From contig NZ_CP147990.1 of NCBI RefSeq assembly GCF_037902255.1, positions 2,040,001-2,072,000 on the forward strand: DNA of 32,000 bases, in the 5' to 3' direction. Of the stretch, positions 6,569-27,364 are shown one piece after another. The DNA comes from Candidatus Electrothrix sp. GW3-4. GTDB taxonomy: Bacteria; Desulfobacterota; Desulfobulbia; Desulfobulbales; Desulfobulbaceae. Each line of letters begins with the position of its first letter. Within the stretch, counting starts at the first letter, position 1. The notes under the pieces are model-generated. The model was not told where the DNA came from. It made no database searches and saw only the letters and a list, made by a program, of their open reading frames with translations. The translations under genes and the position numbers were made by a program.

Positions 6569-6958
6569 TTACGATAAATATGTCCTGATATTATCGTAAA
6601 CTTCGGTCGCTATGCTAAAAAATTCTTCGGCAATTTCTTTCGATGGCTTACCATCCGGGAGAAATCCCATATCCATCGGGTAGCGGGAATCAATGTACAA
6701 TTCGTTAATTTGACCAAACAGCTCTCGGTCAACAGAGAGTTCAATGTAATTTTCTATTTTGCCTTGAAGATTTATGATGTTATGAATTCTTGGTACAGTC
6801 CCTTCTTTTTCTTCCAGTACAGCCTTGATGCTTTTTTCTATTGCCTGTTGGGAATGAAAGGCTACCATGTTGGTCAGATGCTCATTACCTATAATTTCTT
6901 GTATGAGCATCAGATCGTCTCCGGCAGAGTTCAACCAATATTCAGTCTGTTTTTTCAT
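6569..6958 (-). CDS. HEPN domain protein (toxin-like partner of the MNT nucleotidyltransferase)
   Basis: FHSQQAIEKSIKAVLEEKEGTVPRIHNIINL and LYIDSRYP fit the small HEPN family that pairs with minimal nucleotidyltransferases. It overlaps the upstream MNT gene by 17 nt. Confidence 0.85.
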   Translation of the reverse strand: MKKQTEYWLNSAGDDLMLIQEIIGNEHLTNMVAFHSQQAIEKSIKAVLEEKEGTVPRIHNIINLQGKIENYIELSVDRELFGQINELYIDSRYPMDMGFLPDGKPSKEIAEEFFSIATEVYDNIRTYLS

Positions 6959-7286
6959 ACAGTAATTTTCCCGTCTTCTTTATCTCATTACAAAAAGAAT
7001 TTTCACTCTTCAGGACAATATCGTACTCACCTCTTGTATAGACCAATAAATCAATAGGTATTCTTTTGCTCAAATTGTAAATTTTTCTGCGAACCAGCAT
7101 CTTGTTTCGCATTTTCTCATCATAATTTTTTGCTATACCCAAGGAGTCCAGCACGACGAGTAAATCAAGATCGCTGTCCTCTGTAAAGGAATCGCCAGCA
7201 TATGAGCCGAACAAAATTATTTTATAGGGATCAGTCTTCCTTATACTTCTTACTATTTCAGGAAGATATTTCCTTTTGTCTTCCAT
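6942..7286 (-). CDS. Minimal nucleotidyltransferase (MNT-type antitoxin)
   Basis: ILFGSYAGDSFTEDSDLDLLVV matches the G-S...D-x-D nucleotidyltransferase motif. The protein is 114 aa, and the gene lies upstream of and overlaps the HEPN gene. Confidence 0.85.
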   Translation of the reverse strand: MEDKRKYLPEIVRSIRKTDPYKIILFGSYAGDSFTEDSDLDLLVVLDSLGIAKNYDEKMRNKMLVRRKIYNLSKRIPIDLLVYTRGEYDIVLKSENSFCNEIKKTGKLLYEKTD

Positions 7287-13468: not shown

Positions 13469-14722
13469 ATGTCTAAACCCAAAAAAACTACCCTTTTGCC
13501 TGTTCAACAAGATATCTTCACAAAGCAGACCATTAATCAGGATGGCCCAGGGAGTCTTTTACAAGACTTTAAAACAATACTTAATCTTCTCGGAGAAAAA
13601 GGAATTCCTGTCTCTGGGGTAAAAAAGCATTTTCCCATGGCCCAGCTTGCGGAAATCAACAACCAACTTTCTCATCCTGTCACCCTGAAACTGAAACGTC
13701 CTGTCCAAAAGTCTTATCCGCACATTAATGCCCTGTATTTGCTTGTTCGAGCTTCAGGAATAGGAAGGATTGCTGGCACAGGGAAAAAACACCGTTTGGT
13801 GCTTGAGCCAACCTTGATTCAGCTTTGGCAAAAACTCACTCCAGCAGAACAGTACTTTTCTTTATTTGAAGCATGGTGGTGCAGGGGAAGTGATGAAATC
13901 CTCGGGGAGCGGGAGGGCGGTGGGATGTTAGATTATTTGATTCGAAGCTTGAATTATTTTATCAAACTGCCGGAGAAGGGTGTCAACATGGCAGGAAAAA
14001 AACAAGAGGAAGAAGGTCTGCGATATTATCCAGGTCATCATTCGTTGGCTTTATTAGAATTATTTGGTTTTATCACCATACAGGATGGTGAACCGGAGCA
14101 AGGGAAAGGGTGGCGCGTTGAAAGCATTACGCCGACAGAGTGGGGGAAGGCTGTCCTGAACAGTATCTATAAGGGAAATCAACAGACAATGGATACATTT
14201 TGGGGTGCATCTGTTGAGGAAATGAAGGCGGCTGCTTTTGCACAATGGAGGACAGCGGTTCAGCCGTATTTTCCTGATTGGAATAACATATTGACGCCAC
14301 CTGAAGCCCCATTTCAGCAAGGTGTTCATGTTGTTAAAATATCAATGGACAGGGCATGGAGAAGGATAGCCATCTCAGGAGAGGCCACCTTTGACGCACT
14401 TGCAGAGGCAATTTTAAGGGCCTTTAATTTTGGTAATGATCACCTGTATCAGTTTATTTATAGCGACTCGTACGGGTTGAAAAAATACATAAATCACCCT
14501 GCACTGGAAGAAGAGCCCTACACAGACGACACTCGTCTTGGCAAAATTTCATGCTATGCTGGCATGGAAATGGTTTTCTTTTTTGATTTTGGGGACTCAT
14601 GGGAATTTCAGGTGATGGTGGAAGAAACCGATGCGGATACCCCTGTTGGATCGGAGCCTGTGCTCCTTAAAAGTCACGGCAAGGCACCTGAGCAGTACCC
14701 GGAATATGATGACGAGTGGTGA
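13469..14722 (+). CDS. Plasmid pRiA4b ORF-3-like family protein
   Basis: The C-terminal region reads FDALAEAILRAFNFGNDHLYQFIY...MVFFFDFGDSWEFQVMVEE. This matches the HLxxF and (Y/F)DFGDxWxh signature of the pRiA4b ORF-3-like domain, which is often linked to mobile DNA. Confidence 0.75.
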   Translation: MSKPKKTTLLPVQQDIFTKQTINQDGPGSLLQDFKTILNLLGEKGIPVSGVKKHFPMAQLAEINNQLSHPVTLKLKRPVQKSYPHINALYLLVRASGIGRIAGTGKKHRLVLEPTLIQLWQKLTPAEQYFSLFEAWWCRGSDEILGEREGGGMLDYLIRSLNYFIKLPEKGVNMAGKKQEEEGLRYYPGHHSLALLELFGFITIQDGEPEQGKGWRVESITPTEWGKAVLNSIYKGNQQTMDTFWGASVEEMKAAAFAQWRTAVQPYFPDWNNILTPPEAPFQQGVHVVKISMDRAWRRIAISGEATFDALAEAILRAFNFGNDHLYQFIYSDSYGLKKYINHPALEEEPYTDDTRLGKISCYAGMEMVFFFDFGDSWEFQVMVEETDADTPVGSEPVLLKSHGKAPEQYPEYDDEW

Positions 14723-16306
14723 AACGAGCAAAGAAGCAAATAACAAACAAATCTTTCCTGCAACCACCCTGAAGGAGGCTGTGTTCTGCAGTACGAGGGA
14801 GCACCCAACAGGTCAATCAAGCCTCCGAAGGAGGGTGATGAAGGGCTTTTCCCCTTGTTTCGCCGTTTTTTGTACGCAGCTGCCCGTATGATATTGAGTG
14901 CTGTTGCCTTCATGCTCGCTGCGAAACGAACCGCTTTCATACCTCGAACCCGGAGGTGCTTGATTCCCGTGCGTCGATCAAGTTGCGACATGGTCGCCTC
15001 GACTCCGGCCCGGAACCGATACTTGTCTTTGAATTCATCGGTTCGCTCGTTGGCTCTTCTTCGGGTGAGGCGGACGACCTTCTCGTTATAGCGGAGATAA
15101 ACGAGGTCTTTTTTGCCGGGTTTAACAGGGCAATGGTTGACTCTCGGGCAGGCATTACATTTTTCTGACGAAAAGGCTATGGTGAACCTGTCTTTTTTCT
15201 TGGATTTTTTGACCGGCTGGCATTTTTCAGGGCACGAGATGACAAAACCGTTTTCAGAAAACTCAAAATCGGTCAGAGTGCAGAAGAGATCTTTTTGTCG
15301 ATCCAGAGTGGGGGCGATCAGATCAACGCCTTTTTGTTTTGCCGCCTCGTGATTGTCATCGCTCCCGTAGAGCGTATCGGCTGCTATTTCTTCCGGTTTT
15401 ACACCACGTTGTTCTGCGGCCTCAAGATACGGCATCACTTTCATGGGCAGCCTGCACATCAACATAGGTGATCAGGGAAAGAGTTCCAGCATCTTTCTCA
15501 TTGCTATATGTTTCAGCGACCTGAGCCTGGTATCCTTTGCCTTTATGACCGCTGTATCCGGCATCGGGATCAGAGGGATTCTGAAGAGAGTCGGAGGGGA
15601 TATCCTTATTCGCCTTCAGGATGACACGCGGTTCATCAGTATTTTCTCCCTGCTCTGTGATGCATTGTTCTTTCAGAACGCGCGTCATGAGCTGATATGT
15701 TTTCATGGACGCGATGTCAGGACGCGAGCAGAACCTGTTGATAAGAAAAAAAAGGTCTTCAGCAACCATTTGCAGGGTTTTGGTCGATTCGGACGGTTTA
15801 ACCATAGAAAAGGCACTTTCCTCTTCTTTTTTCAGGTAGCGATCCCGCAAAGTTAGATCAAGTTCATTGAAATCGTTTTTGTGCTGCCGCTTGAGGTTGA
15901 CCAGGAATCTCTTGATAGCTTCTGTAAAGATACAGATTCTACCTGAGTTGTTTGTGATATCAAGAGCATAATGCCATTGTATATTAAAGACAAACTGCTC
16001 GGCTGTTTCTTGGTCTGTCAGATTATGCATCTGCTGCAACAACATCGCTCCCATCATGGCAACGAGCTCATTGGTTGGACGTCCCATCTTCGCACTGAAA
16101 TACCGGGCAAGGAGGTCAACAGGAAGCACGTGGCGGACATGATCCCGAAAAATCCCCGCCCATGACTCGCCCAGCATTTTTCGACGTTTCGGCCCGAGAA
16201 AATCAAAAGGGTCGAACATGTTAATGGTTTTGTGATCTTTGATGTTTAACATGGCTACATTGCTTATCTGTTTATAATATTGATCTATTAGTACCAAGAC
16301 AAACAA
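14674..16306 (-). mobile_element. IS1182-family insertion sequence remnant; transposase split by a frameshift; element ends not determined
   Basis: The N-terminal ORF (likely start ATG 16250-16252, MLNIKDHKTINMFDPFDFLGPKRRKM...GRPTNELVAMMGAMLLQQMHNLTDQE) resembles the DUF772-type N-terminus. The C-terminal ORF (ADTLYGSDDNHEAAKQKGVDLIAP...CNACPRVNHCP...YRFRAGVEATMSQLDRRTGIKHLRVRG) resembles the DDE part. The two frames overlap at 15422-15465. The C-terminal frame runs on past any plausible IS end into the 3' end of 13469-14722. I could not find terminal inverted repeats by eye. Confidence 0.7.
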
Positions 16307-16380: not shown

Positions 16381-16641
16381 TCAATAATGATACCGACATG
16401 AAATGATTGTAATATATTGATCAGTCACAGCATAAACCAACCTGTTCTGTTCATCAATTCTGCGGGACCAGAAACCGGATAAATTTTCCTTTAATGCTTC
16501 AGGCTTGCCGATTCCCCTAAAGGGATCACGCTTGACCGCATCAATCAGTTTATTGATCCTTTTCAGGGTCTTTTTGTCTTGTGACTGCCAATAGACATAA
16601 TCCTTCCATGCTTCATCCGTCCAGGCAAGCTGTCTATTCAC
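16381..16641 (-). CDS. yoeB: YoeB/Txe-family toxin
   Basis: 86 aa: LAWTDEAWKDYVYWQSQDKKTLKRINKLIDAVKRDPFRGIGKPEALKENLSGFWSRRIDEQNRLVY...CRYHY. It has an 8-nt overlap with the upstream antitoxin gene. Confidence 0.9.
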   Translation of the reverse strand: MNRQLAWTDEAWKDYVYWQSQDKKTLKRINKLIDAVKRDPFRGIGKPEALKENLSGFWSRRIDEQNRLVYAVTDQYITIISCRYHY

Positions 16642-16888
16642 GGATCAGCTCTCTTTCCTTTATCTGGCCGTTTTTATACTGCATGATAGATTTTGCCAAG
16701 TGTTCGGCATTAGCCGGTGTTTTGAGGAGATGAAAGGTTTCCATCAGGCTGTTGAAGACCTCCAGCGACATCACGACGGTATCCTCTCTGTCGCGCCTTG
16801 AGATGATTGTGTAATCGGCATCGTCGGTTACCCGATCCAATACCGCTTTCAGGTTGTTTCTTGCTTCGCTAAAATTGACTACTTTCAT
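16634..16888 (-). CDS. yefM: YefM/Phd-family antitoxin
   Basis: I placed the start at ATG 16886-16888 (MKVVNFSEARNNLKAVLDRVTDDADYTIISRRD...), which has a G-rich RBS upstream. The longer track ORF adds 17 implausible residues. Confidence 0.9.
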   Translation of the reverse strand: MKVVNFSEARNNLKAVLDRVTDDADYTIISRRDREDTVVMSLEVFNSLMETFHLLKTPANAEHLAKSIMQYKNGQIKERELIRE

Positions 16889-16914
16889 TACCGCCCCCAG
16901 ACTTGTTCTATTTA

Positions 16915-16922
16915 TTGTACAA
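16915..16922. promoter_or_regulatory. Candidate YefM-YoeB operator palindrome
   Basis: TTGTACAA lies about 30 nt upstream of the yefM start. The TGTACA core is the hexamer described for E. coli yefM-yoeB operators. Confidence 0.35.
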
Positions 16923-17003
16923 GTATAGCTCGGCAGCATGCAATTAGCAAATGAATAATCGTGACGGTGGACAGAGGGATCAGTTAAATGCGGATTTTTG
17001 TCG

Positions 17004-17206
17004 GGCCGGGTTGAATCGAGAGAGCCTGTTCAAGGCTCTTGCCGGAGAGGGTAATCCGAGATTTTCCACAGTCAGCGGGGACATCAAGACATTTTTTTTT
17101 GGGGGGGGACGACTGGCTGTTGCGTGAAGACGGGAAACAAAGGAGCCGGATGCTGTTTTTGCAACAATTCCAATTCTGGGATCAATCGAGTCCGACCCCA
17201 TTGACC
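17004..17206 (+). repeat. TA-island repeat, copy A (antitoxin 3' remnant plus conserved tail)
   Basis: It starts at GGCCGGG and encodes AGLNRESLFKALAGEGNPRFSTVSG...RLAVA* (stop 17125-17127). The remnant is disrupted by a T9G8 tract (17092-17108). The tail is GGGAAACAAAGGAGCCGGATGCTGTTTTTGCAACAATTCCAATTCTGG, followed by the hairpin GATCAAT-N13-ATTGACC (17180-17206). Confidence 0.9.
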
Positions 17207-17228
17207 TTCAGGAAGGAAGGAGAGTGCG

Positions 17229-17558
17229 CTACGTCGGTGCCGGAGTGCGAAATCCAGAACCTGCCATAGGTCGAATTTCCCGTTTTATCCTTTCTTCCGA
17301 AGCATCTTCGGCCATATCCAGCTCAAAGTCCATCTGGAGACCAAGCCAGAACTGGGGAGACATATCAAAGTATCTGGCCAGCCGCAGGGCCGTATCAGCA
17401 CTGACCCCTCTTCTGCCCAAAACAATTTCATTAATTCTTCTGGCCGGGACATGAAGTGCCAAGGCCAATTTATTCTGGCTCAGGCCCAGCGGTTTCAAGA
17501 ATTCCTCCTGGAGCACCTCACCCGGATGCAGGGGTGCTATTTTCTTTGTTCCCATCAT
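17229..17558 (-). CDS. higA: HigA-type antitoxin (XRE-family HTH)
   Basis: PLHPGEVLQEEFLKPLGLSQNKLALALHVPARRINEIVLGRRGVSADTALRLARYFDMSPQFWLGLQMDFEL is the canonical HigA/VapI HTH. Its start overlaps the higB stop (TAATG). Confidence 0.9.
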   Translation of the reverse strand: MMGTKKIAPLHPGEVLQEEFLKPLGLSQNKLALALHVPARRINEIVLGRRGVSADTALRLARYFDMSPQFWLGLQMDFELDMAEDASEERIKREIRPMAGSGFRTPAPT

Positions 17559-17845
17559 TACCCCCTGTGATAATCTACAATTTCCACATCAAACGCATCT
17601 TCGTTTTTCCATGTGAAGCAGATTCTCCACTGATCATTGATGCGAATTGAGTATTGACCTGCCCGTTCCCCTTTCAGTTTTTCGAGATGATTTGCAGGCG
17701 GAATGCGCAGGTCATTAATATGTTGCGACCTGTTTATCATGCGCAGTTTTCTGAAGGCGGATCTTTGGATATCATTCGGTATCTTTTTAGAATGCGACCG
17801 CTTGAAGATCTTTTCCGTTGCGCTGTTTTTGAATGATCGAATCAT
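17558..17845 (-). CDS. higB: HigB-type toxin (RelE/ParE superfamily killer protein)
   Basis: I placed the start at ATG 17843-17845 (MIRSFKNSATEKIF...). LEKLKGERAGQYSIRINDQWRICFTWKNEDAFDVEIVDYH is the HigB signature. Confidence 0.9.
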   Translation of the reverse strand: MIRSFKNSATEKIFKRSHSKKIPNDIQRSAFRKLRMINRSQHINDLRIPPANHLEKLKGERAGQYSIRINDQWRICFTWKNEDAFDVEIVDYHRG

Positions 17846-17918
17846 ACACTGTATGTTACAACGGGTAACGTTTAACGTCAATGGTTAAAGGGTTGGTGCG
17901 AATTTAACAGCGGTGGGT

Positions 17919-18047
17919 GGCCGGGCTAAACCGTGGGAGCTTGTACAAGGCTTTTGCCGGAGATGGTAATCCGAGATTTTCCACGGTCAGCAGGGGCAGC
18001 GTGAAAACGGGAAACAAAGGAGTTGGCCGCTATTTTTGCTACAATTC
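17919..18047 (+). repeat. TA-island repeat, copy B (internally deleted and 3'-truncated)
   Basis: It starts at GGCCGGG and encodes AGLNRGSLYKAFAGDGNPRFSTVSRG. About 30 bp are missing relative to copies C and D. Homology ends at ...TTTTTGCTACAATTC, where the vapC gene (18039-18443, minus strand) begins its 3' end. Confidence 0.85.
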
Positions 18048-18443
18048 AGCTACCTCAATGGTGCATTCCTTGGCAGTCCTGATCAATTTTTTATCCAAGG
18101 TCAAAAGAACAGCATTATTTCTTCGAGCTGCGATTAAGTACATAATGTCATACACACTGTGACCCACCAAGGTACATGACAGCTTGAAAGCCTCTCGAAA
18201 AAAGTCATGTTCATCAATAAAATCATCAGGAAGAGCAATAGCTTGTTCAAGGCCTCGCTCACAGTCCTGCAAAGAAAGGTCTGTCAACCGCTGATATTTC
18301 CAAAAAACATTCGTGACTTCCGAAACAAACAGAGTCGGCGCGACCACCCAGTCCGCCTCACTCAGATACCTACTCAACTGCCCTGCCATAGGGCGTTGCA
18401 GAACAACTTCCACTGCCGCACTTGCATCAAGGACAGCGATCAT
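18039..18443 (-). CDS. vapC: PIN-domain toxin (VapC family)
   Basis: MIAVLDASAAVEVVL... has the N-terminal acidic PIN signature. The protein is 134 aa. It has a 4-nt ATGA overlap with the upstream antitoxin gene. Confidence 0.85.
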   Translation of the reverse strand: MIAVLDASAAVEVVLQRPMAGQLSRYLSEADWVVAPTLFVSEVTNVFWKYQRLTDLSLQDCERGLEQAIALPDDFIDEHDFFREAFKLSCTLVGHSVYDIMYLIAARRNNAVLLTLDKKLIRTAKECTIEVAEL

Positions 18444-18691
18444 CGCTCACGATCCTCCCTGACAAGTTGAACAGGATCCACAGATGCCATTTTTTTGCCT
18501 ACAAAGCATGTTTGCTCAGCAATTGTCTGAAGCAATTTTCTCCTGCGATCTTTATGGGAAACAGCGGTCTCCATACCTCTTGCCAAGGTAACGACAGCCT
18601 CCTGGGCAAGACTGCGATGTTCCGCTTTCGCCCTTTTTTGCAAACGATGATAAATATTAACCGGCAACTCTCTCACTTGTAAAGATGGCAT
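18440..18691 (-). CDS. vapB: RHH/Arc-type antitoxin (VapB/FitA-like)
   Basis: MPSLQVRELPVNIYHRLQKRAKAEHRSLAQEAVVTL is a ribbon-helix-helix N-terminus typical of PIN-partner antitoxins. The gene is translationally coupled to the PIN gene. Confidence 0.75.
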   Translation of the reverse strand: MPSLQVRELPVNIYHRLQKRAKAEHRSLAQEAVVTLARGMETAVSHKDRRRKLLQTIAEQTCFVGKKMASVDPVQLVREDRER

Positions 18692-18846
18692 GGCACTTCT
18701 CCCTAAAGATGTATTTTCAACCTGTTATTTAAACCTCTTTTGAGAATAATGCATTTTTCATCATTACGCAAGCAGCTGTGCCTTTTATTCTAATGGAGTC
18801 TGGGTCTGTGCGAACTTTCGGGGGATGCACAATTGGATCTGTTTAA

Positions 18847-19020
18847 AGACCGGCGGGTTTTGATCCGAACTCGGTGCTGAAAAAAAGCACTAAGGTGGCG
18901 AGAAAGGCCGGGTTGAATCGTGAGAGCCTGTACAAGGCTCTTGCCGGAGAGGGTAATCCGAGATTTTCCACGGTCAGCAGGGGTATCAAGGGCTTGGGGT
19001 GCCGACTGGCTGTGGTGTGA
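18847..19020 (+). pseudogene. 5'-truncated remnant of a HigA-family (addiction module antidote, HTH) antitoxin gene; longest surviving copy
   Basis: The in-frame translation is RPAGFDPNSVLKKSTKVARKAGLNRESLYKALAGEGNPRFSTVSRGIKGLGCRLAVV*. This matches the C-terminal GLxRESLYKALSxxGNPxxxTxxxVxxALGxRLxV pattern of that antitoxin family. No start codon or N-terminal half is present, and a TAA sits immediately upstream. Confidence 0.7.
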
Positions 19021-19099
19021 AGACGGGAAAGAAAGGAGCCGGATGCTCTTTTTGCAACAATTACAATTGTGAGATCAATCGAGTCCGACCCCATTGATC
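18906..19099 (+). repeat. TA-island repeat, copy C
   Basis: Full-length copy. It runs from GGCCGGG through the tail GGGAAAGAAAGGAGCCGGATGCTCTTTTTGCAACAATTACAATTGTGA and the perfect hairpin GATCAAT-N13-ATTGATC (19073-19099). Confidence 0.9.
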
Positions 19100-19128
19100 A
19101 AGCAGATCCTCCACTGATCATTGATGCG
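19100..19128 (-). pseudogene. 29-nt fragment of a higB-like toxin gene
   Basis: AAGCAGATCCTCCACTGATCATTGATGCG matches 17616-17644 inside the intact higB at 28 of 29 positions. It encodes RINDQWRIC on the minus strand. It is fused directly to the end of repeat copy C and overlaps the stop of the PIN gene. Confidence 0.7.
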
Positions 19129-19534
19129 GAATGACCTCCAACATGGAACCGTCCGAAAGGCGATAGATATAAAAATCACTATCAATGGTAAAAATATGTT
19201 TTATTTTAGCATATTCTGCCAAGGCGACCAAGGATGAATCAGCCAGATCCATCGGCGTATCCTGATATCTTTTCATCAACTTATGCATTGTCTTGGTCTC
19301 TGAAAGGGTCGGCTCATGAAGTTCCAGCTTCATCTCCTCTACTAACTTCCAAAGAACAGCCTGATAACGATAGCCGCCGACCGCTCCGAGAAGATGCATG
19401 GCCTCGGTAAAGCACGGCCATGTTGTCAGCATGGGTTCAGCAGGCAAGGTCTTCACGGTATCAACACAACGTCTATGATGATTGTCCCTTTTATCAAGCA
19501 GCGCAATAAGCGGCCCGGTATCGGTCAATATCAT
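19118..19534 (-). CDS. vapC: PIN-domain toxin (VapC family)
   Basis: MILTDTGPLIALLDKRDNHH...DLADSSLVALAE...IFTIDSDF shows the conserved acidic PIN residues. It has a 4-nt overlap with the upstream gene. Confidence 0.85.
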   Translation of the reverse strand: MILTDTGPLIALLDKRDNHHRRCVDTVKTLPAEPMLTTWPCFTEAMHLLGAVGGYRYQAVLWKLVEEMKLELHEPTLSETKTMHKLMKRYQDTPMDLADSSLVALAEYAKIKHIFTIDSDFYIYRLSDGSMLEVIPHQ

Positions 19535-19821
19535 ATTTTTCCCTGTCGACGTTTTGCCGCAAGGATATCAGCAAATCTTTTTCCGGTATTTGCGGACATC
19601 TGCGCACCACCCGGAACAACTTCTCCGCTGTCGATGGTGCCGATATCTCCTTGCAACATATCAGCCAAACTGTTCATCCCGGAATCTTCCTGTTTTTTTC
19701 TCTCTTTTTGAAAGAAACATTCCCGAAGTGTTTTCAGGACAATTGACTCGACAGTCGCTCCCTGTTTCCTGGCCACCCGAATTAATACCTGCTCAATTTC
19801 CGGCGTTAAAGTTATATTCAC
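19531..19821 (-). CDS. Putative antitoxin partner of the PIN toxin
   Basis: 96-aa ORF with a GTG start, preceded by GAGGA 6 nt upstream. It overlaps the PIN gene start by 4 nt. The call rests on position and size only. Confidence 0.6.
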   Translation of the reverse strand: MNITLTPEIEQVLIRVARKQGATVESIVLKTLRECFFQKERKKQEDSGMNSLADMLQGDIGTIDSGEVVPGGAQMSANTGKRFADILAAKRRQGKI

Positions 19822-19961
19822 AAAAAATCCTCGCTATATTTGGCACTGTTATTTTTTGCAGCAGGGTGATGGCCTGACCGCATACCACCCAACAGTTTGT
19901 TCTCTGCTGTTATGCTGCCATATTTATCTGTATGATGCAAGGTCGTTTCTGTTCAGGAGGA

Positions 19962-20149
19962 GGCCGGGCAGAATAGTGAAAGCCTGTACAAGGCTCTTGC
20001 CGGAGAGGGTAATCCGCGATTTTCCACGGTCAGCAGGGTCATCAAGGCATTGGGGTGCCGACTGGCTGTTGCGTGAAAACGGTAAGCAAAGGAGCCGGAT
20101 GCTGTTTTTGCAGCAATTCCGGGGTCAATCAAGTCCGCCTCCATTGATC
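19962..20149 (+). repeat. TA-island repeat, copy D
   Basis: It starts at GGCCGGG and encodes AGQNSESLYKALAGEGNPRFSTVSRVIKALGCRLAVA* (stop 20074-20076). The tail has one CAATTC unit deleted. The hairpin is GTCAAT-N13-ATTGATC. Confidence 0.9.
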
Positions 20150-20286
20150 TTACTCCGCCCCCTATTATTTCAGGGTGAATGCAGTAGCGGCTGAGGCAAA
20201 GAAGAAAAATCTTGACGGATACCCTGATTGCAGCTAGCCTGTCTAGGTAGAAGGTGTTAGAAAAATAACTGCAAGGAGAACAATAT

Positions 20287-20547
20287 ATGATAAGAAGAAC
20301 AACTTGGGCACTTCAGGATGCCAAAAACAAATTCAGTCGAGTGGTTAATGAAGCACTCACGCACGGGCCGCAATATGTCAAGCGGCGAGGTGTTGATACC
20401 GTCGTTGTCCTGTCGGTCCGTGACTATGAGAAATTGACCTCGCAGAAACCATCGTTTACCGACTTTCTGTTGAGCATTCCAAAAATCGACAATTATACCG
20501 ATCCGTTTGAGAGGCAGCATGAATATCCGAGGGAACTTGATTTATGA
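20287..20547 (+). CDS. Phd/YefM-family antitoxin
   Basis: TWALQDAKNKFSRVVNEALTHGPQYVKRRGVDTVVVLSVRDYEKL is the Phd/YefM N-terminal fold signature. RBS AAGGAG lies upstream. It has a 4-nt overlap with the PIN gene. Confidence 0.85.
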   Translation: MIRRTTWALQDAKNKFSRVVNEALTHGPQYVKRRGVDTVVVLSVRDYEKLTSQKPSFTDFLLSIPKIDNYTDPFERQHEYPRELDL

Positions 20548-20966
20548 ACTATCTGCTGGACACATGCGTGATCTCCGAGCTGGTCAAACCTCGACCAAAT
20601 ACAGCGGTGACTGACTGGCTTGCCCGGACTCCTGCGGACCGCCTGTTCCTGAGTTCCCTCACAATAGGAGAGTTGAAACGAGGTATTACGCGGCTACCTG
20701 AGTCAAAAAAGAAAAGCCACCTGATGATGTGGCTTGAGACGCTGCTGGCAGATTACGGTGACCGGATTCTTCCTGTTGATCGTGCTGTGGCTGAAGCATG
20801 GGGGATTATGCAAGCGCGGGCGGAGGATTCAGGACAGAGGATGTCGATTATTGACGGGTACATCGCCGCCACGGCATCAGCGTATCAGATGACTGTCGTG
20901 ACACGAAATGAAGGGGATTTTTCCCCGAGTCATCAGGCAATACTGAATCCTTGGAAAATGCTTTGA
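20544..20966 (+). CDS. vapC: PIN-domain toxin (VapC/FitB-like)
   Basis: MNYLLDTCVISELVKPRPN...LSSLTIGELKRG...DGYIAATASAYQMTVVTRNEGDF is the canonical VapC motif set, including the C-terminal TRNxxDF. Confidence 0.9.
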   Translation: MNYLLDTCVISELVKPRPNTAVTDWLARTPADRLFLSSLTIGELKRGITRLPESKKKSHLMMWLETLLADYGDRILPVDRAVAEAWGIMQARAEDSGQRMSIIDGYIAATASAYQMTVVTRNEGDFSPSHQAILNPWKML

Positions 20967-21045
20967 AGCTGCTTGGAAGCTCTGTTGATGGCTGTTCTCA
21001 CTCTGGATAAACATTTTCGGCATCTTCCGGTTGGATGCGTGAAGT

Positions 21046-21516
21046 TCAGGTGAGAAGGTAATCCTGCTGGAGTCCCCGGTCGAATAAAAACGAAAACGTG
21101 GTCTGTCCCCTATTTACTTCTACAGGGATGGTAAATATCCCTGTAGCAATCAGGCAGAAAAGGCCCATCGCCAGGGAACCAATTAATATAACTGGGAAAT
21201 CTTCGAGGAGGAACCATAAGCCTTCCTTGAAAACCCCTATTGTAACCGCCATGAACATTAATGAGAAGGAATGAACAAAGTGCATCGCAACACCGACAAT
21301 ACATCCTGCCCATACAGTTCGGCGTGCCCGATTTTCATCTCTCCCGGCAACCAGTCTGCCCCATGTTAAATATCCTGTAATAAAAGCGGATATTCCATAA
21401 GATAAAGGCCACCCACCGTTGTATCCACCTAAGAAGATAAACATAAGTGATATTGTTAGCAGGAAGCAAACAAGAGCAAATAGACCTGCTTCCTTCCAGT
21501 GTTCTCTCGTTACCAT
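21046..21516 (-). CDS. Small integral membrane protein (about 4 TM segments), unknown function
   Basis: 156-aa ORF with four long hydrophobic stretches. I recognise no motif. Confidence 0.55.
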   Translation of the reverse strand: MVTREHWKEAGLFALVCFLLTISLMFIFLGGYNGGWPLSYGISAFITGYLTWGRLVAGRDENRARRTVWAGCIVGVAMHFVHSFSLMFMAVTIGVFKEGLWFLLEDFPVILIGSLAMGLFCLIATGIFTIPVEVNRGQTTFSFLFDRGLQQDYLLT

Positions 21517-21594
21517 ATGCGAATACTGTGTCTATTTATAGCAACTTACCGATGCAGCTATATTTTACTCTTCTCAATAGAGACATGATCAAAG

Positions 21595-21698
21595 AGTCAG
21601 CAGATTAACCGGGGTCTCGGCATAGTTATAGGTAGTGAAGATGGTACCGGACTGGCTACGCTCGGTGACCTCCGCCTTTCGCCGCGTCAGGAGGTGAA
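21595..21698 (-). pseudogene. Diverged duplicate of the 3' part of the formate dehydrogenase gene
   Basis: The region aligns by hand to 23322-23434 of fdhA. A 64-nt core is identical at 56 of 64 positions. The fragment encodes ...KAEVTERSQSGTIFTTYNYAETPVNLLTL*, compared with fdhA ...KAKITERSQPGTIFTTYNYEETPVNFLTLDAL.... There is no upstream coding continuation. Confidence 0.7.
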
Positions 21699-21713
21699 GC
21701 GTCCTGTTTTTCC

Positions 21714-21787
21714 GGGCAACAAAGGAGCCGGATGCTGTTTTTGCAACAATACCAATTATGGGATCAATCGACTCCGACCCCATTGAT
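21714..21787 (+). repeat. TA-island repeat, copy E (tail only)
   Basis: GGGCAACAAAGGAGCCGGATGCTGTTTTTGCAACAATACCAATTATGGGATCAATCGACTCCGACCCCATTGAT. The antitoxin-derived part is absent. The copy is joined on its left to the fdhA-like fragment. Confidence 0.85.
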
Positions 21788-21790
21788 TTC

Positions 21791-23053
21791 TTACCAAGGA
21801 AACCATTTAGTTCCAAGAGGTGGTAGGTTACATTTATCATAGCTTTGAACTAAAAAATACCAGTTTACAAGAATTACATATATAGCAAGAATTCCTTTTG
21901 TAAAAAGCATACTATGAATAAAAAAAGATATTTTTAGTGTTAGAGATCCAAAATGCCATTTTCTCGGGCATTGAGAAAGACAATTTTTTACACACCCACT
22001 AATACACCCCCCTTCATTATCCATTAATCGAAGTTGATTACCAGCATAAAGAAACAATATCCATGATATAATACTGCTTATGACCAAAGCTAATTGCCAA
22101 CGAGGAATTATTTCAGGAGCAACGATAAGTTCAATATGCTTTAATGGTCCCTCAGAAAGATGTGTTAATTTTTCATAAAAAAAAGACATCAAATAAATTT
22201 TCAAGGAGAAGCATATTAATATAACTGATGAATATATAAGTGTAATAATACTAGTGTCACTTTTTCTGATGGAAGTGAGTTGGTTTTTCAAATTTAGATT
22301 ACCTGGAAAGGTATAATTAATAAGCCACAGAAGAGGGCTATATAATAAAGCTGTGCTTTTTAATGACCACCTGTAAATAAGCGAAGGAAAATATACTAAA
22401 AATAGTAAAAAAACGGTGTATATGAAATGTAAATTTGATGTTTCTTGGTAGAAATCAAAACTCGAAAATTTTAAATCACTCCACTCTCCTTGATAATCAA
22501 TACTTTCTATGCCAGGAACTGGTTCTGGTGGGTGAGCAAAATCGATACAAAGAACTTGCTTCTTCCAATTCCTTGGAATTGATTTTATACAATCTAAAGG
22601 ATTTAATACAATCTGCACAACAATAGAATAACATCTCGATATTAATACAATTAACGGAAGTAAAATAAGAGATAAAGGGGAAAGATACAATACCTGCCTT
22701 TCTGAAATGTCAAATTTCAAAAAAAAGTTTCTTAATTTTAAAGTCAATTTGTCTAATGTTAAAAGTCCTAGTTTAACAGAGTTATCTGTTCTCAACAACA
22801 ACATCGGTGCAAATATTAATCCTAGTGCTACATGAATAAATACACCGTCAAGTATAAGAGCCAATGAAATAAAAAATAATATTATTGTCTCAATAATAGC
22901 AAGAATTGTAACCTGATTATCATTAAATGTTTTGGGAGAAGAATAAAGAATCTTAGTCTTTCGTTGAAATCCATACGCCTCAGCGTAATACCGAAATGGT
23001 CTCAAAAAAACTATTTCAAGCGACTTGCTCAACCCAGAATCTGGCTTAATCAT
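21791..23053 (-). CDS. Polytopic membrane protein (about 8-10 TM segments), ORFan in a very AT-rich segment
   Basis: 420-aa uninterrupted ORF despite roughly 30% GC, where random stops are frequent. It has many long hydrophobic segments rich in I, L and F. I recognise no motif. The stop lies 3 nt from repeat copy E. Confidence 0.65.
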   Translation of the reverse strand: MIKPDSGLSKSLEIVFLRPFRYYAEAYGFQRKTKILYSSPKTFNDNQVTILAIIETIILFFISLALILDGVFIHVALGLIFAPMLLLRTDNSVKLGLLTLDKLTLKLRNFFLKFDISERQVLYLSPLSLILLPLIVLISRCYSIVVQIVLNPLDCIKSIPRNWKKQVLCIDFAHPPEPVPGIESIDYQGEWSDLKFSSFDFYQETSNLHFIYTVFLLFLVYFPSLIYRWSLKSTALLYSPLLWLINYTFPGNLNLKNQLTSIRKSDTSIITLIYSSVILICFSLKIYLMSFFYEKLTHLSEGPLKHIELIVAPEIIPRWQLALVISSIISWILFLYAGNQLRLMDNEGGCISGCVKNCLSQCPRKWHFGSLTLKISFFIHSMLFTKGILAIYVILVNWYFLVQSYDKCNLPPLGTKWFPW

Positions 23054-23245: not shown

Positions 23246-26200
23246 TCACCCCAAAACCTCAACCCGAATAGCACAAAGCTTATACTCCGGCGTACGAGAA
23301 AGCCGATCCAGCGCATCCAAGGTCAGGAAGTTAACCGGGGTCTCCTCATAATTATAGGTGGTGAAAATGGTGCCGGGCTGGCTCCGCTCGGTGATTTTCG
23401 CCTTAATATCCACCGTTCCCCGGCGGGAGGTGAGTTTCAGCATATCGCCCGACTTGATCCCCATCCGCTCGGCATCAACAGGATTAACTTCGGCCAGAGC
23501 CTCGGGTGCGATATCATCAATCTCCTCGGTTTTGCCGGTCATATTGCTGAAATTATAGCGGGCATAATGGCGGCCCGTGGTGAAGAGCATAGGGTACTCA
23601 TCATCCACTGGCTCCTTGGGTGCCATGTAGACTTCCGGTACAAACAGCCCCTTACCGCGCGTAAAGGACTCGGTATGGAGAACCGGGGTGCCCGGATGCT
23701 CAGTATCAGGCACCGGCCATTGCAGACCGACATCCTCAATGCGGGCGTAGGAAAGACCCTTGTACTGCGGTAAAAGTTCGCAGACTTCATTAAAGACATC
23801 TTCCGGACCTGCTATACCCATGGAGTAACCCATCCGCTCAGACAGCTCGCTGATGATCTGCCAATCCGGCTTAGCAATTCCCGGAGGTTCAACCGCCTTA
23901 CGTACTCGCTGTACCCGCCGTTCCGTGGAGGTGAAGGTGCCGTCTTTCTCGGCAAAACAGGCTGCTGGGAGAACCACGTCCGCTGCCTTGGCCGTGTCAT
24001 TGAGAAAGAGATCCTGGACAACAAGGAACTCCAGATGATCAAGGGCCTTGTGGACATGCCCGATATTAGCATCAGCAATGGCCGGATCTTCACCAAACAC
24101 GTAGAGGGCTCGGATTTCATCCTGGAGGATATTATCCCAGATCTCCGTGGCCGGCTTGCCGGGCTGCCGGGGTAATTTGACCTGCCAGCGTTCTTCGTAG
24201 CGGTCAAACAGCTGATCATTATCCAGCTTACCGTAACCGGGCATGGTGTTGAATAGAGCGCCCATGTCGCAGGCTCCCTGGACATTATTCTGTCCACGCA
24301 ACGGATTGCACCCGCCGCCTTCAACCCCGACCTTGCCGCAAAGCATGGCCATATTGGCGATGGATTTGACTCGGTCCGTACCGGTGTGATAATGGGTGAT
24401 GCCCATGCCGTGATAAATCGCATTGCGACCGGGAGCCGCATACATACGGGCGGCCTGCTCCAGTTGACTGATCGGGAGACCGGTGATTTCGGAAACCAGC
24501 TCCGGCGGATAGCCCTCCGCCATCTCTTGCATCTCCTCAAAATCTTCGGTGCGCTGGGCAACAAAATCCTTATCCCAGAGGTCTTCCTTCAGGATAATAT
24601 GCATCAAGCCGTTGAGCAGAGCCACGTCCGTGCCCGGTTGAATCCGCAACCAGAGATCAGCCCGTTCTGCCAGCTTGGTCCTGCGCGGATCAACCACCAC
24701 CAGTTTTGCATCCCCTTTATCCAAGGCCTGATGAATACGCAAGCCGATGGTGGGATGACTGGTGTCTGGATTGGACCCGATCATGAAAAAGAGATCTGTT
24801 TTGTTATTAACAACATCGGCGATTGAGTTGGTCATTGCGCCGGAACCGAATGTGATGGCCAGACTGGCCACCGTGGGAGCGTGTCAGAGCCGGGCACAGT
24901 GATCGATATTATTCGTCCCGATCACCGTGCGCATGAACTTCTGCATGAGGAAGTTTTCCTCGTTGGTTGCTCTGGCACAGGAAAATCCGGCAATGGAATC
25001 CGACCCGTGCTCCTTTTTGACCTTGGTCAGCCGCTCCGCAATAACATTATAGGCCTCGTCCCAGGAGGCTTCCACCAGCTTGCCGTCACGGCGAACCAGC
25101 GGAGTGGTCAGGCGTTTTTTATCCTGAGCAAAGTTAAAGGCAAAGCGACCCTTGACGCAGAGGGCTCCGTAGTTGGGAGCCAAATGCGACTCTGAGGTGG
25201 CCTCCATGATGGTGTCGCCCTTGACCTTGAGCTGCATCTGGCAGCCAGCCCCGCAGTAAGGACAGGTAGTGCGTACCTTACGAGTTTCCTCATAGAGGAT
25301 GGGAGAGAGCACATCCTTTTTGCAGATAGTGCCGGTAGAGCAGTTATCTGCGCATTGCCCGCAGTTCACACAGTTCTCATTAAAACGCAACGAGATGCCG
25401 GTGGCCCTGCCCTGCTCATCTACTGAAGCCTTCAGCTCCAGGGCATCATATGCACAGGCATTGACGCAGCGGCGACAGTACACGCATTTGTTCAGATCCA
25501 CATTGAGCATGGGATGCGAGCTGTCCAGGCTGTACACAGGCTCGGTGGCCATGCCGGTCTTGTTCAAATTGATATTATTATCAATACAGAGCTGCTTAAA
25601 ATCGCAGTCATCATAGGCCATGCAGCCGCATTCCAGACAACGATCCGCCTCCTGTCGGGCAGCCGCCTCATCAAAGCCCAGCCTGACTTCCTTGTTGTCC
25701 AGGACCGCGACCTCCGGGTGCCGGTCCGGCATAGGGGTCCGATCCCGCCTATCAAACCGCTCCAATACCCTGGTATCCACAGCATCAAAGGACTTACCGC
25801 GGCTGAAGTTAAAACGACTTTCCGCCGAAGGGGCAGCGATCCCCATCAGATCGGTGTGAATGTTCTCTGCCGCCTTGCGCCCGGAGCTCACCACCTGAAT
25901 CAGGGCACGGCTACCGCTGGCTGCCTCACCTGCCGCATAGACCCGATCCATACTGGTCATTGAGGTCTTGATATTGGCCTTGATCAGATTCTTCGGGGTG
26001 AAGTCCACCGGAACCGGGGGCTCGCCCTGTTCCTCTGTATAGGCCATCTGTCCCTGAGCATGAATGATTGTGTCCACCAGCAGGACCTCAAAGACATCCG
26101 GGACCGGCTGCAGCTGCCGTTTTCCTTTATCATTCGGTTCCCCCAACTCCATCTGGTTCAGAACCAGCTCCAATCCAGAGCCCAGCTGTCTGATTTCACA

Positions 26201-27364
26201 GGGGTCAACCATAAACAGGAAATGCACGTTTTCCTTGACAGCTTCGCTGACCGCCTTGGGGCTGGCAGGTAACTCGGTTTCGTCAGCGCGCAGGCTGACC
26301 ACCGTGACCTCCTCATACCCCAGCCGGATCAGACTGCGGGCGTTTTCCAGGGCAATATTATTGCCGCCGATCACTGCTGCTGTTTTCCCCTTGCGCAGTT
26401 GGCTGGTGTCACCAACATTGTACTGTCGAAGGGACTGCAGCCCCGGCAACACCCCAGGCAGGTCGACGCCTGGAATCTCCAGGGGCTGATCAATCCCGGC
26501 CCCGATGGTCAACAGGACGGCATCAAACTGATTCTTCAACTCGTCCAGGGTGACATCCTGGCCCAGACGATGATTGCATCGGACCGCAATGCCAAGTTTG
26601 AGAATGGTCGCGATCTCGTAGTCCAACACCTTTTTCGGTAGTTTAAACTCCGGAATGCTGTAGCGGAGCAGACCGCCCAGCTCCTCCTCTGCCTCAAAAA
26701 TGGTGACCGCATGCCCGTTTTTGGCCAGATAATAGGCTGCTGATAAGCCTCCGGGCCCACCACCGATCACGGCAATCTTTTTGCCGGTGGCAGGTTGGGA
26801 TTGAATACCAAGATCAATCGTATTGCTCATGCACCAATCAGCAGCAAAACGCTTCAGATGGTTGATGGCAATGGGCGCATCCAGCAGGACCCGACGACAA
26901 CGGCTCTCACAAAAACGGCGGCAGAGCCGCCCCACGGAAAACGGCAGCGGGTTCTTCTCCATAACCAGTCGGACGGCCTCTGCGTACTGCCCTTTGGCGA
27001 TATGGGCGATATAGCCCTGGACATTGATCTGGCCTGGGCAGGTCAGGCTGCATGGAGCTTTGCAGTCGCCAAAATGGATGGATGCCAGCGCAGCAACCCG
27101 TTCTTGACGATGCGCTTTGAGCTCATCATTATCCGTGATAATGACCATCCCCTCCTCGACCAGGGTTGAGCAGGATTTGATAAAGCCCTCCCGTCCCTCG
27201 CAGGCAACAACACAGACCTCGCAATGGGACTCCTGAGATTTTTTTTCCGGGAGGTGGCAAAGAGTCGGAATAGTGATTCCGGCTTGGCGGGCAGCTTCCA
27301 GTATGGTTGCGCCCTGTTCGACCGAAACCTGAACGGCATCAACGGACAGGCTGATTTTTTTCAT
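23246..27364 (-). CDS. fdhA: Selenocysteine-containing formate dehydrogenase fusion protein: 2Fe-2S ferredoxin, GltD-like NAD(P)H/FAD oxidoreductase, 4Fe-4S clusters and the molybdopterin FdhA catalytic domain (1372 aa, Sec at residue 827)
   Basis: Track ORFs 24884-27364 and 23246-24871 are in one frame, joined by TGA (24884-24886) in the context [29 protein letters not shown]. This is the conserved Sec/Cys position of FdhA/FdhF enzymes. Domain evidence is as follows. The N-terminus has ITIPTLCH...CEVCVV. The GltD-like part has KIAVIGGGPGGLSAAYYLAKNGH. The ferredoxin motifs are CVYCRRCVNAC and CVNCGQCADNC. The Mo-enzyme 4Fe-4S motif is TTCPYCGAGCQM. The C-terminal part ends ...TIFTTYNY.... 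Confidence 0.9.
24850..24886 (-). promoter_or_regulatory. Candidate bacterial SECIS element downstream of the UGA codon
   Basis: The mRNA reads UGA CAC GCU CCC ACG GUG GCC AGU CUG GCC AUC ACA. GGUGGCC and GGCCAUC form a 7-bp stem (24854-24872) with loop AGUCU, starting 12 nt after the UGA. The geometry and loop resemble the E. coli fdhF SECIS (GCAGGUCUGCAC). Confidence 0.6.

Follow-up and report, generated by a model that had tools for sequence, protein, structure and literature searches.

The window analysed here, a stretch of 32,000 nucleotides from Candidatus Electrothrix sp. GW3-4 (NCBI RefSeq assembly GCF_037902255.1, contig NZ_CP147990.1, positions 2,040,001 to 2,072,000 of the forward strand; coordinates below count from its first letter), carries five type II toxin-antitoxin (TA) modules (yefM-yoeB, higB-higA, fitA/vapC, parD/PIN and phd-vapC) punctuated by copies of a repeat, the unit of which consists of the C-terminal half of an HI1420-family antitoxin gene and a tail of ~80 nt. 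This repeat-punctuated array is real and is specific to cable bacteria. Tentatively, and with a confidence that falls just short of an even chance, we interpret it as a lineage-specific hypervariable module array of Candidatus Electrothrix, usually located just downstream of the gene fdhA, in which the repeats act as portable recombination homology: on the best reading of the data, the array is integron-like in outcome and behaves like a cassette array.

The repeat unit and its copies

The repeat is real and lies far above chance: 26-30-mers from its core occur 3-4 times in the window at no more than one mismatch, with none expected in shuffled sequences, the copies are matched by nhmmer at E values of 1e-20 to 1e-75, and the direct-repeat families D1-D4 agree. 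A preliminary description of the region, made from the sequence alone, had listed five copies in the same orientation; the orientation is as described, all copies (A-E) lying on the plus strand, and the repeats themselves stand, but only A, C and D are full copies. Repeat A (17004-17206) comprises a remnant of the antitoxin gene with a T/G homopolymer insertion (17004-17127) and a terminal palindrome box (17178-17206), and a diverged 5' extension on the same strand (16960-17003) brings the copy to 16960-17206. Repeat B (17919-18048) is damaged, with an internal deletion of ~38 nt that removes the last ~12 codons of the remnant and a tail truncated at model position ~159, the end of which overlaps the 3' end of vapC. 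Repeat C (18906-19099) is again full, with its box at 19071-19099 and a remnant that reaches back to nt 133 of the antitoxin gene (from 18882), whilst repeat D (19962-20149) is full with a 6-nt deletion in the tail. Repeat E (21713-21788) is a tail only (model positions 119-194, box 21760-21788), with a scar of fdhA fused to its left and the stop codon of an AT-rich gene 2 nt to the right of its box. The statement that each copy holds the last 35-40 codons of the antitoxin is hence wrong for E, which has none of them, and for B, which has lost the last ~12. The tail had also been described as conserved at least as well as the remnant: mean pairwise identity, computed from 15 copies in six genomes, is 86% in the tail against 89% in the remnant, which makes the two about equal and the tail no better conserved.

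Some of these copies have been annotated as genes: the open reading frame (ORF) at 16951-17127 in repeat A is identical to WGN25_09185 and that at 18874-19020 in repeat C to WGN25_09210. When the ORF on the reverse strand of the tail was searched with the consensus as query, the best match was WGN25_09225 (79% identity), which is the reverse ORF over copy D, and the protein search with this ORF gave no match outside the window's own genome.

Origin of the antitoxin remnant

The remnant matches the profile PF21716/TIGR02684 (dnstrm_HI1420) over positions 46/47-88 of 90 only. The ratio of nonsynonymous to synonymous divergence (pN/pS) is 0.57 for the remnants, compared with 0.09 for the same codons of intact genes, and several copies exhibit frameshifts or deletions. 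The remnant is thus a derived pseudogene fragment under relaxed constraint and not a member gene of the HI1420 family, whose members are full-length HTH proteins of ~90 aa with an HI1419/Gp49-like toxin gene upstream; its 5' ends lie at nt 93-212 of a gene of 279 nt and it has no toxin gene beside it. Intact operons of this TA family, encoding a Gp49/HI1419-like toxin and an antitoxin of 92 aa, occur in an Electrothrix metagenome-assembled genome (MAG), in Candidatus Electronema and in sediment metagenomes, where they are found at other loci or in other lineages only; the C-terminal halves of their antitoxins show 80-86% protein identity to the remnant. The remnant therefore corresponds to the C-terminal half of the PF21716 antitoxin of a TA type with intact operons in related cable bacteria, from which the arrays differ in always being without the toxin gene and at least the first ~30 codons of the antitoxin, and in the nearly neutral evolution of what is left. 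We also considered the tail as the native 3' flank of the intact operon, and rejected this because some ten intact operons are all without it.

At no array position in any genome examined was a toxin gene or the first ~30 codons of the antitoxin detected. In-situ decay of tandem paralogs was rejected on this ground, which agrees with the earlier argument that the copies are not independently decayed paralogs. One near-full-length orphan copy is present in E. communis (L004/L005), outside any TA array.

Ends of the repeat and the palindrome box

In comparison with a hidden Markov model of the intact antitoxin genes (279 nt), the 5' ends of the repeat are ragged: remnants start at gene nt 93, 94, 109, 111, 118, 126, 133 (copy C), 144-150 and 165-167, two truncated copies start at nt 209 and 212, and A and B possess a diverged further 5' extension that is shared with copies in YB6 and AR4. 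The sharp start at GGCCGGG that had been reported for four copies does not hold, given that C starts at gene nt 133 instead of 166 and that A and B extend further 5'; the apparent edge stems from a 9-nt slippage deletion within GGCCGG-AAA-GGCCGGG. The 3' end, as read by eye on the aligned copies, is sharp: ~13 different right-hand contexts start straight after ...CCCCATTGATC (...ATTGATC). This terminal sequence CCCCATTGATC forms the outer arm of an imperfect palindrome, ATCAATGGGGTCRGASTCGATTGAT, with arms of 10 nt and a spacer of 5 nt, and eight independent contexts have the stop codon of an unrelated, convergent gene within ~22 nt of the box (in the window, where they were read base by base, the gaps are 2-22 nt; elsewhere they are estimates from hit ends and gene coordinates). 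The eight genes concerned are higA, two PIN genes, VapC133, an M35 peptidase gene, a gene for a protein of 289 aa, a DUF6875 gene and the 30%-GC gene at 21791. Copies that consist of the box only are found at L003 901-925 and L006 7483-7510.

We found little sign of structure at the RNA level. Rfam and tRNA scans of the window gave no match, the folds of the repeat alignment on both strands contain local stems only, without an end-to-end stem and with 1 and 0 compensatory pairs, and a terminator scan flags copy E only, so that the repeat qualifies neither as a structured RNA nor as an intrinsic terminator.

Turnover of modules between genomes

At least 11 distinct TA modules are present across the arrays of nine genomes. 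Cassette gain, loss and re-ordering in relatives, for which the preliminary description proposed to look, are seen in the comparison of GW3-4 and YB6, which differ in both module content and order: GW3-4 shows the order fitA/vapC, repeat C, parD/PIN, repeat D and phd/vapC, whilst in YB6 we find a repeat, phd/vapC, copy Y4, parD/PIN and copy Y5, with neither fitA/vapC nor higBA. The parD/PIN module and its repeat accordingly sit in different slots in the two genomes, and in AU1_5, L003 and Rat3 it is fitA/vapC that adjoins phd/vapC. Repeat C and YB6 copy Y4 are 97-100% identical, with left flanks and neighbours that differ from just before GGCCGGG: the identity of these copies despite their different left flanks indicates that the body of the repeat moves together with the module that has its 3' end at the box. 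Repeat D, judged by its sequence, looks like a hybrid, in that its 5' flank and first bases (GGGCAGAA) match YB6 copy Y5, whereas its tail variant GCAGCAAT matches the copies linked to phd-vapC. Precise mapping of a crossover within repeat D was attempted and rejected, as informative sites are too few. The C/Y4 junction maps to the left of repeat position 8 and that of D/Y5 to the right of position 9 (few sites), and it follows from these different positions that the junction is not fixed; together with the many copies truncated at arbitrary points, this speaks against the fixed breakpoint at the repeat that had been suggested.

Other traces of turnover take the form of duplicated ends that bracket inserted DNA. 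In YB6, copy Y1, which stops at position 143, and the full copy Y2 belong to the A subtype and stand on either side of a module missing from the window, which is just what a single-crossover insertion would leave behind. L008, a metagenomic locus, has a 2.6-kb island with two TA modules between an intact antitoxin gene and a duplicate of 83 nt (98% identical) of that gene's 3' end; the relatives L012 and L004 are without the island. In the window, a 3' fragment of fdhA (21589-21700) and fdhA itself bracket the AT-rich gene. Scars of illegitimate events include a fragment of higB (19100-19134), a fragment of vapC in AU1_5 and several truncated repeats. Relative to its YB6 ortholog, repeat C has diverged by 1.5%, compared with ~10% for A and D, and purifying selection on the repeat at the DNA level was rejected, as these values give an inconsistent picture.

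Horizontal exchange of modules

The genes shared by the GW3-4 and YB6 arrays are considerably less diverged than the anchor gene beside them. For fdhA, nucleotide identity between the two genomes is 81.7% with a synonymous divergence (pS) of 0.50; for six shared module genes pS is 0.08-0.21, and the module blocks are 88-93% identical at the nucleotide level. The modules are 2.5-6 times younger than neighbouring fdhA at synonymous sites, and these values, far below that of fdhA, indicate that the shared modules were exchanged horizontally. A small mosaic patch was also seen within the PIN gene in the same comparison. The fdhA scar next to repeat E is closer to YB6 fdhA (93% identity) than to the window's own fdhA (83%, to 23322-23404), which indicates that past recombination brought in or displaced a foreign fdhA end. 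The modules, and on at least one occasion part of the anchor gene, have thus moved from lineage to lineage since these split.

Distribution among cable bacteria

A scan with exact patterns of one genome per species yielded three loci, all of them Electrothrix arrays, with one locus per genome. A search with the remnant protein returned 15 short ORFs, each of them from a cable-bacterium genome or a short metagenome contig, and all loci fetched for these proteins lie in arrays except the orphan copy of E. communis. The association of the copies with TA arrays that had been proposed is thus retained for all copies found but this orphan. Further arrays were seen in YB6 (CP178758; five copies), AU1_5, an uncultured Electrothrix (L003), Rat3, 'Desulfobulbus sp. 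TB', AX2, AR4 and AUS1_2. In five genomes (GW3-4, YB6, Rat3, AX2 and AUS1_2) the array adjoins the 3' end of fdhA, and the slot beside fdhA is occupied by a non-TA gene that differs among all five. No box was present in ~80 kb of non-array Electrothrix DNA and no repeat copy outside the array in the 32-kb window, and exact repeat patterns of 21-22 nt had zero matches in JGI metagenome contigs and IMG/VR viral contigs. A literature search on Electrothrix or cable bacteria in combination with TA systems, integrons or repeats found nothing relevant, and we have not found the array described in the searchable literature.

Proposed recombination mechanism and alternative explanations

In the scheme that we tentatively favour, the ancestor of the repeat would have been one 5'-truncated HI1420-family antitoxin pseudogene that gained the ~80-nt tail ending in the imperfect palindrome, and this unit would have multiplied while modules accumulated. 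Recombination between neighbouring direct repeats could loop out one repeat and one module as a circle, or delete them, and the circle could re-insert by a single crossover with any resident copy, by which the flanking repeats would be recreated. DNA taken up by the cell would replace the module between two conserved anchors (repeat-repeat or repeat-fdhA) through a crossover in each. New modules would arrive through illegitimate joins within a slot, and later deletions that remove older DNA as far as the palindrome would produce the scars and the ragged 5' ends; the palindrome itself may be a 3'-end element for the convergent gene. Jointly, looping-out, Campbell-type re-insertion, double-crossover replacement and illegitimate replacement with trimming would account for the hybrids, bracketing duplicates, scars and ragged ends. 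Exact runs of 20-39 nt are common to every pair among repeats A, B, C and D, which makes homologous recombination feasible: runs of this length are in the range of the minimal efficient processing segment for RecA. The circle and crossover steps, the use of RecA-type recombination instead of a dedicated enzyme and any role of the palindrome are inferred. A search of all large ORFs of the window for recombinase families (Pfam and NCBIfam) identified only the split transposase of an insertion sequence (IS; DDE_Tnp_1_6 and DUF772), and the ±10 kb around the YB6 and Rat3 arrays likewise contain no gene for a recombinase, transposase or HUH enzyme; the tyrosine or serine recombinase or HUH enzyme for which the preliminary description proposed to look near other copies was hence found neither in the window nor within ±10 kb of three other arrays. 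What remains of the original proposal of a cassette junction is the turnover around the repeats and the younger age of shared modules relative to fdhA, whereas a fixed junction, an attC-like fold and a recombinase were not found, and recombination via repeat homology fits the pattern at least as well as a dedicated site-specific system.

Several points weigh against this scheme. The sharp 3' end in ~13 contexts and the gene stops tight to the box are hard to obtain from homologous recombination alone, which explains the end only with the extra assumptions of selection on the box and deletional trimming; the exact boundary and tight gene ends need either these two processes or an enzyme acting at the box. 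The homology model also leaves the origin of each new repeat-flanked module mechanistically unexplained. Single-sequence folds of the repeat hairpin are no more stable than shuffles (z-scores of -0.2 to -1.9), and the divergence yardstick is one core gene, fdhA. The search for recombinases and copies reached the window and the array neighbourhoods, with which a distant recombinase or further copies are compatible. Finally, the array at L008 is punctuated by a different repeat (X, see below), which has only a box of ~21 nt (TGGGGTCAGAGCCCGATTAAT) in common with the Electrothrix tail, a marginal similarity that 1-8 of 500 shuffles equal.

These points lead to the explanation that competes most directly, in which a recombinase, HUH nuclease or transposase with its gene elsewhere in the genome would recognise or cleave the palindrome ATCAATGGGGTCRGASTCGATTGAT; modules would be inserted and excised precisely at the outer edge of the box, in a site-specific manner as in integrons or in a one-ended manner with one exact and one ragged end, and the antitoxin remnant would be a hitch-hiking or accessory arm. 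An enzyme of this kind would fit the sharp 3' boundary, which extends to joins with gene-internal fragments such as the higB scar at 19100, as well as the compactness of the modules, one of the eight closely spaced stops being that of the foreign 30%-GC gene; it would also fit the common orientation of all units in every genome, the fixed locus beside fdhA in five genomes, the repeat body that travels with the module abutting its box (C with parD/PIN) as an ORF does with its attC, and the related box that punctuates the L008 array inside a different repeat. We regard this explanation as somewhat unlikely, however, since no gene for such an enzyme is present in the window (the broken IS apart) or around the YB6 and Rat3 arrays, the junctions as inferred do not coincide, many copies break off within the unit, attC-like pairing and covariation are lacking, and the similarity between the box and repeat X is short and marginal. 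A broader form of the proposal, that cable bacteria and relatives possess an undescribed gene-cassette system with a palindrome box of ~25 nt, an enzyme encoded elsewhere and precise insertion and excision of compact modules, appears to us unlikely. The box of such a system would end the pseudo-antitoxin repeat in Electrothrix and sit inside a different repeat in a related lineage, and its cargo would be mainly TA modules but also other genes, making it a functional analogue of the integron with a different site and enzyme.

At the other extreme, the repeats could be passive scars, left over from tandem duplications of one decayed TA locus among which other TA operons landed by chance, with no part in module turnover and with the array as a TA "graveyard" in a permissive region. 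Such a graveyard would be expected to hold a remnant that evolves as a pseudogene, orthologous repeats with a divergence (1.5-11%) that does not exceed that of the neighbouring genes at synonymous sites, and abundant illegitimate scars, all of which we observe; it accounts poorly for the same module and repeat in different slots across genomes, for hybrid repeats and duplicated repeat-bracketed insertions, for modules much younger than the flanking core gene and for the persistence of the unit in nine genomes or more, among which fdhA is half saturated at synonymous sites, and we consider it quite improbable. A dispersed mobile repeat of the repetitive extragenic palindromic (REP), miniature inverted-repeat transposable element (MITE) or IS-end type, lying between TA genes by chance, is very improbable: box-only copies at two loci and a short imperfect palindrome just after stop codons, where REP elements often lie, are reminiscent of such elements, but copies outside arrays are missing from the window and from ~80 kb of other Electrothrix DNA, the genome scan gives one locus per genome, all copies are direct, and no inverted partner ends and no target duplications were seen. 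The same observations, namely copies in arrays only in the DNA examined and the absence of visible terminal inverted repeats or target-site duplications, separate the unit from bacterial interspersed mosaic elements.

The least probable reading of all, which we would call improbable in the extreme, is a classical integron array or a cluster of attC sites without integrase (CALIN). An attC site measures 57-141 nt, with complementary R''-L'' and L'-R' boxes in an imperfect hairpin and GTTRRRY at the crossover; integrons, unlike CALINs, also have an intI tyrosine recombinase gene and attI where the array begins. Compact modules, often TA, between similar repeats of the same orientation do recall sedentary chromosomal integrons, and GTTGAAT at the 5' edge of A and C fits GTTRRRY; the Electrothrix unit, however, has ~190-240 nt and non-complementary ends, its alignment folds without an end-to-end stem, the GTT motif is not kept in B (GCTAAAC) or D (GCAGAAT) and lies on the wrong side for either strand, no intI is nearby, and more than half of the unit is a recognisable antitoxin pseudogene. 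By length, fold, covariation, placement of GTTRRRY and intI, the analogy to integron arrays that had been drawn at the outset does not extend to membership. On the sequences examined, the array counts neither as an integron or pdif array nor as a REP family, and its repeats are not paralogs that decayed independently.

Comparison with known systems

The likeness to the Vibrio superintegron and to CALINs lies in a chromosomal array at a fixed locus, with compact modules, many type II TA operons, homogeneous repeats of the same orientation, a repeat that travels with the gene ending at it and content and order that vary among relatives. The differences concern the repeat, which at 190-240 nt is mostly antitoxin pseudogene, lacks R'', L'', L' and R' boxes and an end-to-end hairpin, has a ragged 5' end and variable junctions and comes with no integrase that we could find, and the modules, which carry their own promoters and of which one is inverted. 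The pdif modules of Acinetobacter plasmids resemble the array in being discrete modules, TA modules among them, with short recombination-type bounds, shuffled between replicons without a recombinase inside. Their sites, however, are of 28 bp (XerC 11-6-11 XerD), alternate in orientation and lie on plasmids, whereas the Electrothrix repeats are long, chromosomal and all direct; compared by sequence, the palindrome has arms of 10 nt and a spacer of 5 nt, with all units and boxes in the same orientation.

Integrative islands at gene or tRNA 3' ends, their tandem arrays included, and Campbell-type single-crossover insertions share with our loci the duplicated gene 3' end that brackets the insert (the L008 antitoxin, fdhA in the window and the antitoxin halves of the arrays). 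Tandem accretion of such islands calls for an integrase, either in each island or in a helper element, for attL/attR repeats with a fixed core and, at one array end, for an intact target gene. In Electrothrix, however, the inserts have no integrase, the 5' half of the target gene is not kept in the arrays, the lengths and end points of the duplicates vary, and no array ends in an intact antitoxin gene; the metagenomic locus L008 does have one at its head, together with its 83-nt duplicate. Replacement-type flexible genomic islands are alike in their variable cargo between conserved anchors (here fdhA and the repeats) and in cargo younger than its flanks, but differ in that the Electrothrix anchors are internal, multiplied repeats that split the island into many exchangeable slots. 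Homology-facilitated illegitimate recombination is a further parallel, with one homologous and one illegitimate end and the scars left behind. Tn3-family ends have a terminal inverted repeat of ~38 bp that starts with GGGG at the exact tip, and are accompanied by a Tn3-type DDE transposase and 5-bp target duplications. The box contains GGGGTCRGA, with the homology boundary 7 nt outside GGGG, and no transposase or resolvase is near the Electrothrix arrays; we take this presumed likeness as a lead only.

TA modules and flanking genes of the window

That the window holds five type II TA modules, as first described, was confirmed by Pfam matches, with the ParD-like partner as the weak member (E value of 0.0013, below cut-off). 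Four modules lie on the minus strand and only phd-vapC on the plus strand. The first, yefM-yoeB (16381-16939, minus; YoeB_toxin 6.4e-42, PhdYeFM_antitox 1.8e-21), has an ortholog in YB6 at 93% nucleotide identity. It is followed by higB-higA (17229-17881, minus; HigB-like_toxin 4.8e-23, HTH_3 1.2e-9), where the stop codon of higA is 22 nt from the end of the repeat A box, and by a vapBC-type module of a FitA-like ribbon-helix-helix antitoxin and a PIN toxin (18039-18691, minus; FitA-like_RHH 2.3e-6, PIN 4.6e-7), the fitA/vapC module found also in AU1_5, L003 and Rat3. The fourth consists of the ParD-like antitoxin and a PIN toxin (19118-19821, minus; PIN 2.9e-7) and the fifth is phd-vapC (20287-20966, plus; PhdYeFM_antitox 4.5e-12, PIN 1.5e-15), which recurs at six of the other cable-bacterium loci examined (L001, L002/L037, L003, L006, L007 and L040). 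The scar of a higB-like toxin gene (19100-19134, minus, 35 nt; direct repeat D6, 91% identical to 17616-17650 within higB) lies between the box of repeat C and the 3' end of the PIN gene, is fused directly to the palindrome and provides, in another frame, the last five codons and the stop of the PIN gene; it is kept in YB6.

Two genes that are not TA genes belong to the array: one for a predicted membrane protein of 156 aa (21046-21516, minus) and one for a multi-pass membrane protein of 420 aa (21791-23053, minus) in the slot adjoining fdhA, neither with a family match. With ~30% GC in surroundings of ~50% GC, the latter gene is clearly foreign cargo. Between them lies the scar of the fdhA 3' coding region (minus strand, direct repeat D5). 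The anchor gene itself encodes an fdhA-like molybdopterin oxidoreductase by Pfam (23246-27364, minus) in one reading frame with an in-frame TGA at 24884-24886: the ORFs at 24884-27364 and 23246-24871 are a single gene split by this TGA, in the motif CARL-TGA-HAPTVA. Selenocysteine occupies this position in formate dehydrogenases, which makes a selenoprotein the probable product of the gene.

The left border of the array is formed by a broken IS (14674-16306), with a DUF772 N-terminal part at 15422-16306 and a DDE part (DDE_Tnp_1_6) at 14674-15465; a gene for a PRiA4_ORF3-domain protein (13469-14722) adjoins this split transposase. In YB6 the array is bordered on the left by a type VI secretion gene cluster and not by the broken IS. 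Two further short inter-module elements were noticed by eye. The motif AAACGTGGTCTGTCCCCTATTTAC (reverse strand GGGGACAGACC...) occurs at 21094-21117 of the window, at ~4549-4580 of L003 and at ~7590-7620 of L006, and the element GAATGCGTGAA.TTCAGG...TAATCCTGCCGGAATA occurs at ~21032-21070 of the window and also in L006, L007 and L039. Elsewhere in the window, a TA-like pair of HEPN and nucleotidyltransferase (MNT) genes (6569-7286, minus) lies amid glutamate-synthase-type oxidoreductase genes, with no repeat copy nearby.

Other loci with HI1419-HI1420 genes

On the sediment metagenome contig Ga0316189_10003747 (L008, 5421-8861), an intact HI1419-HI1420 operon heads a small TA array with four direct copies (at 5421, 6164, 7786 and 8700) of the ~85-nt repeat X, which contains the box TGGGGTCAGAGCCCGATTAAT and a hairpin of 9 bp; its last element is the 83-nt copy of the 3' end of the antitoxin gene, and a PDDEXK_2 (Rpn-like) gene comes next. 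In Candidatus Electronema sp. V4 (L035 9365-10279, and L036), a full-length 92-aa HI1420 antitoxin gene has no toxin partner, and a MazE-PIN module lies 32 nt upstream of it, at the place expected for the toxin gene. The metagenome contigs L041-L047 encode an identical 92-aa antitoxin (P0027) with at least four different downstream neighbours, which are other TA modules or hsdM, and in L041 and L042 a divergent serine resolvase gene precedes HI1419-HI1420. HI1419-HI1420 seems often to head variable TA regions. A PDDEXK_2 (YhgA/Rpn-like) gene follows directly after the HI1420 antitoxin gene or remnant in L004, L008 and L012, which are of different sources, and this adjacency may be the ancestral neighbourhood of the operon.

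Implications

The array is best filed as a fresh instance of a known theme, that of repeat-bounded arrays of accessory and TA modules, with the case for a new recombination system open to test; if turnover were enzyme-driven, the box would define such a system. At a practical level, the short ORFs annotated as "addiction module antidote" in Electrothrix are pseudogene fragments, and the repeats explain assembly breaks in Electrothrix MAGs, several contigs of which end in repeats. The age of the modules, 2.5-6 times younger than fdhA at synonymous sites, provides a concrete marker of gene flow between uncultured multicellular cable bacteria. If the repeats are indeed the substrate of module turnover, these bacteria would possess a platform in the chromosome on which TA and other accessory genes are shuffled without an integron integrase close by, and in which the end of a dead antitoxin gene has been recruited as portable homology or as a recombination site.

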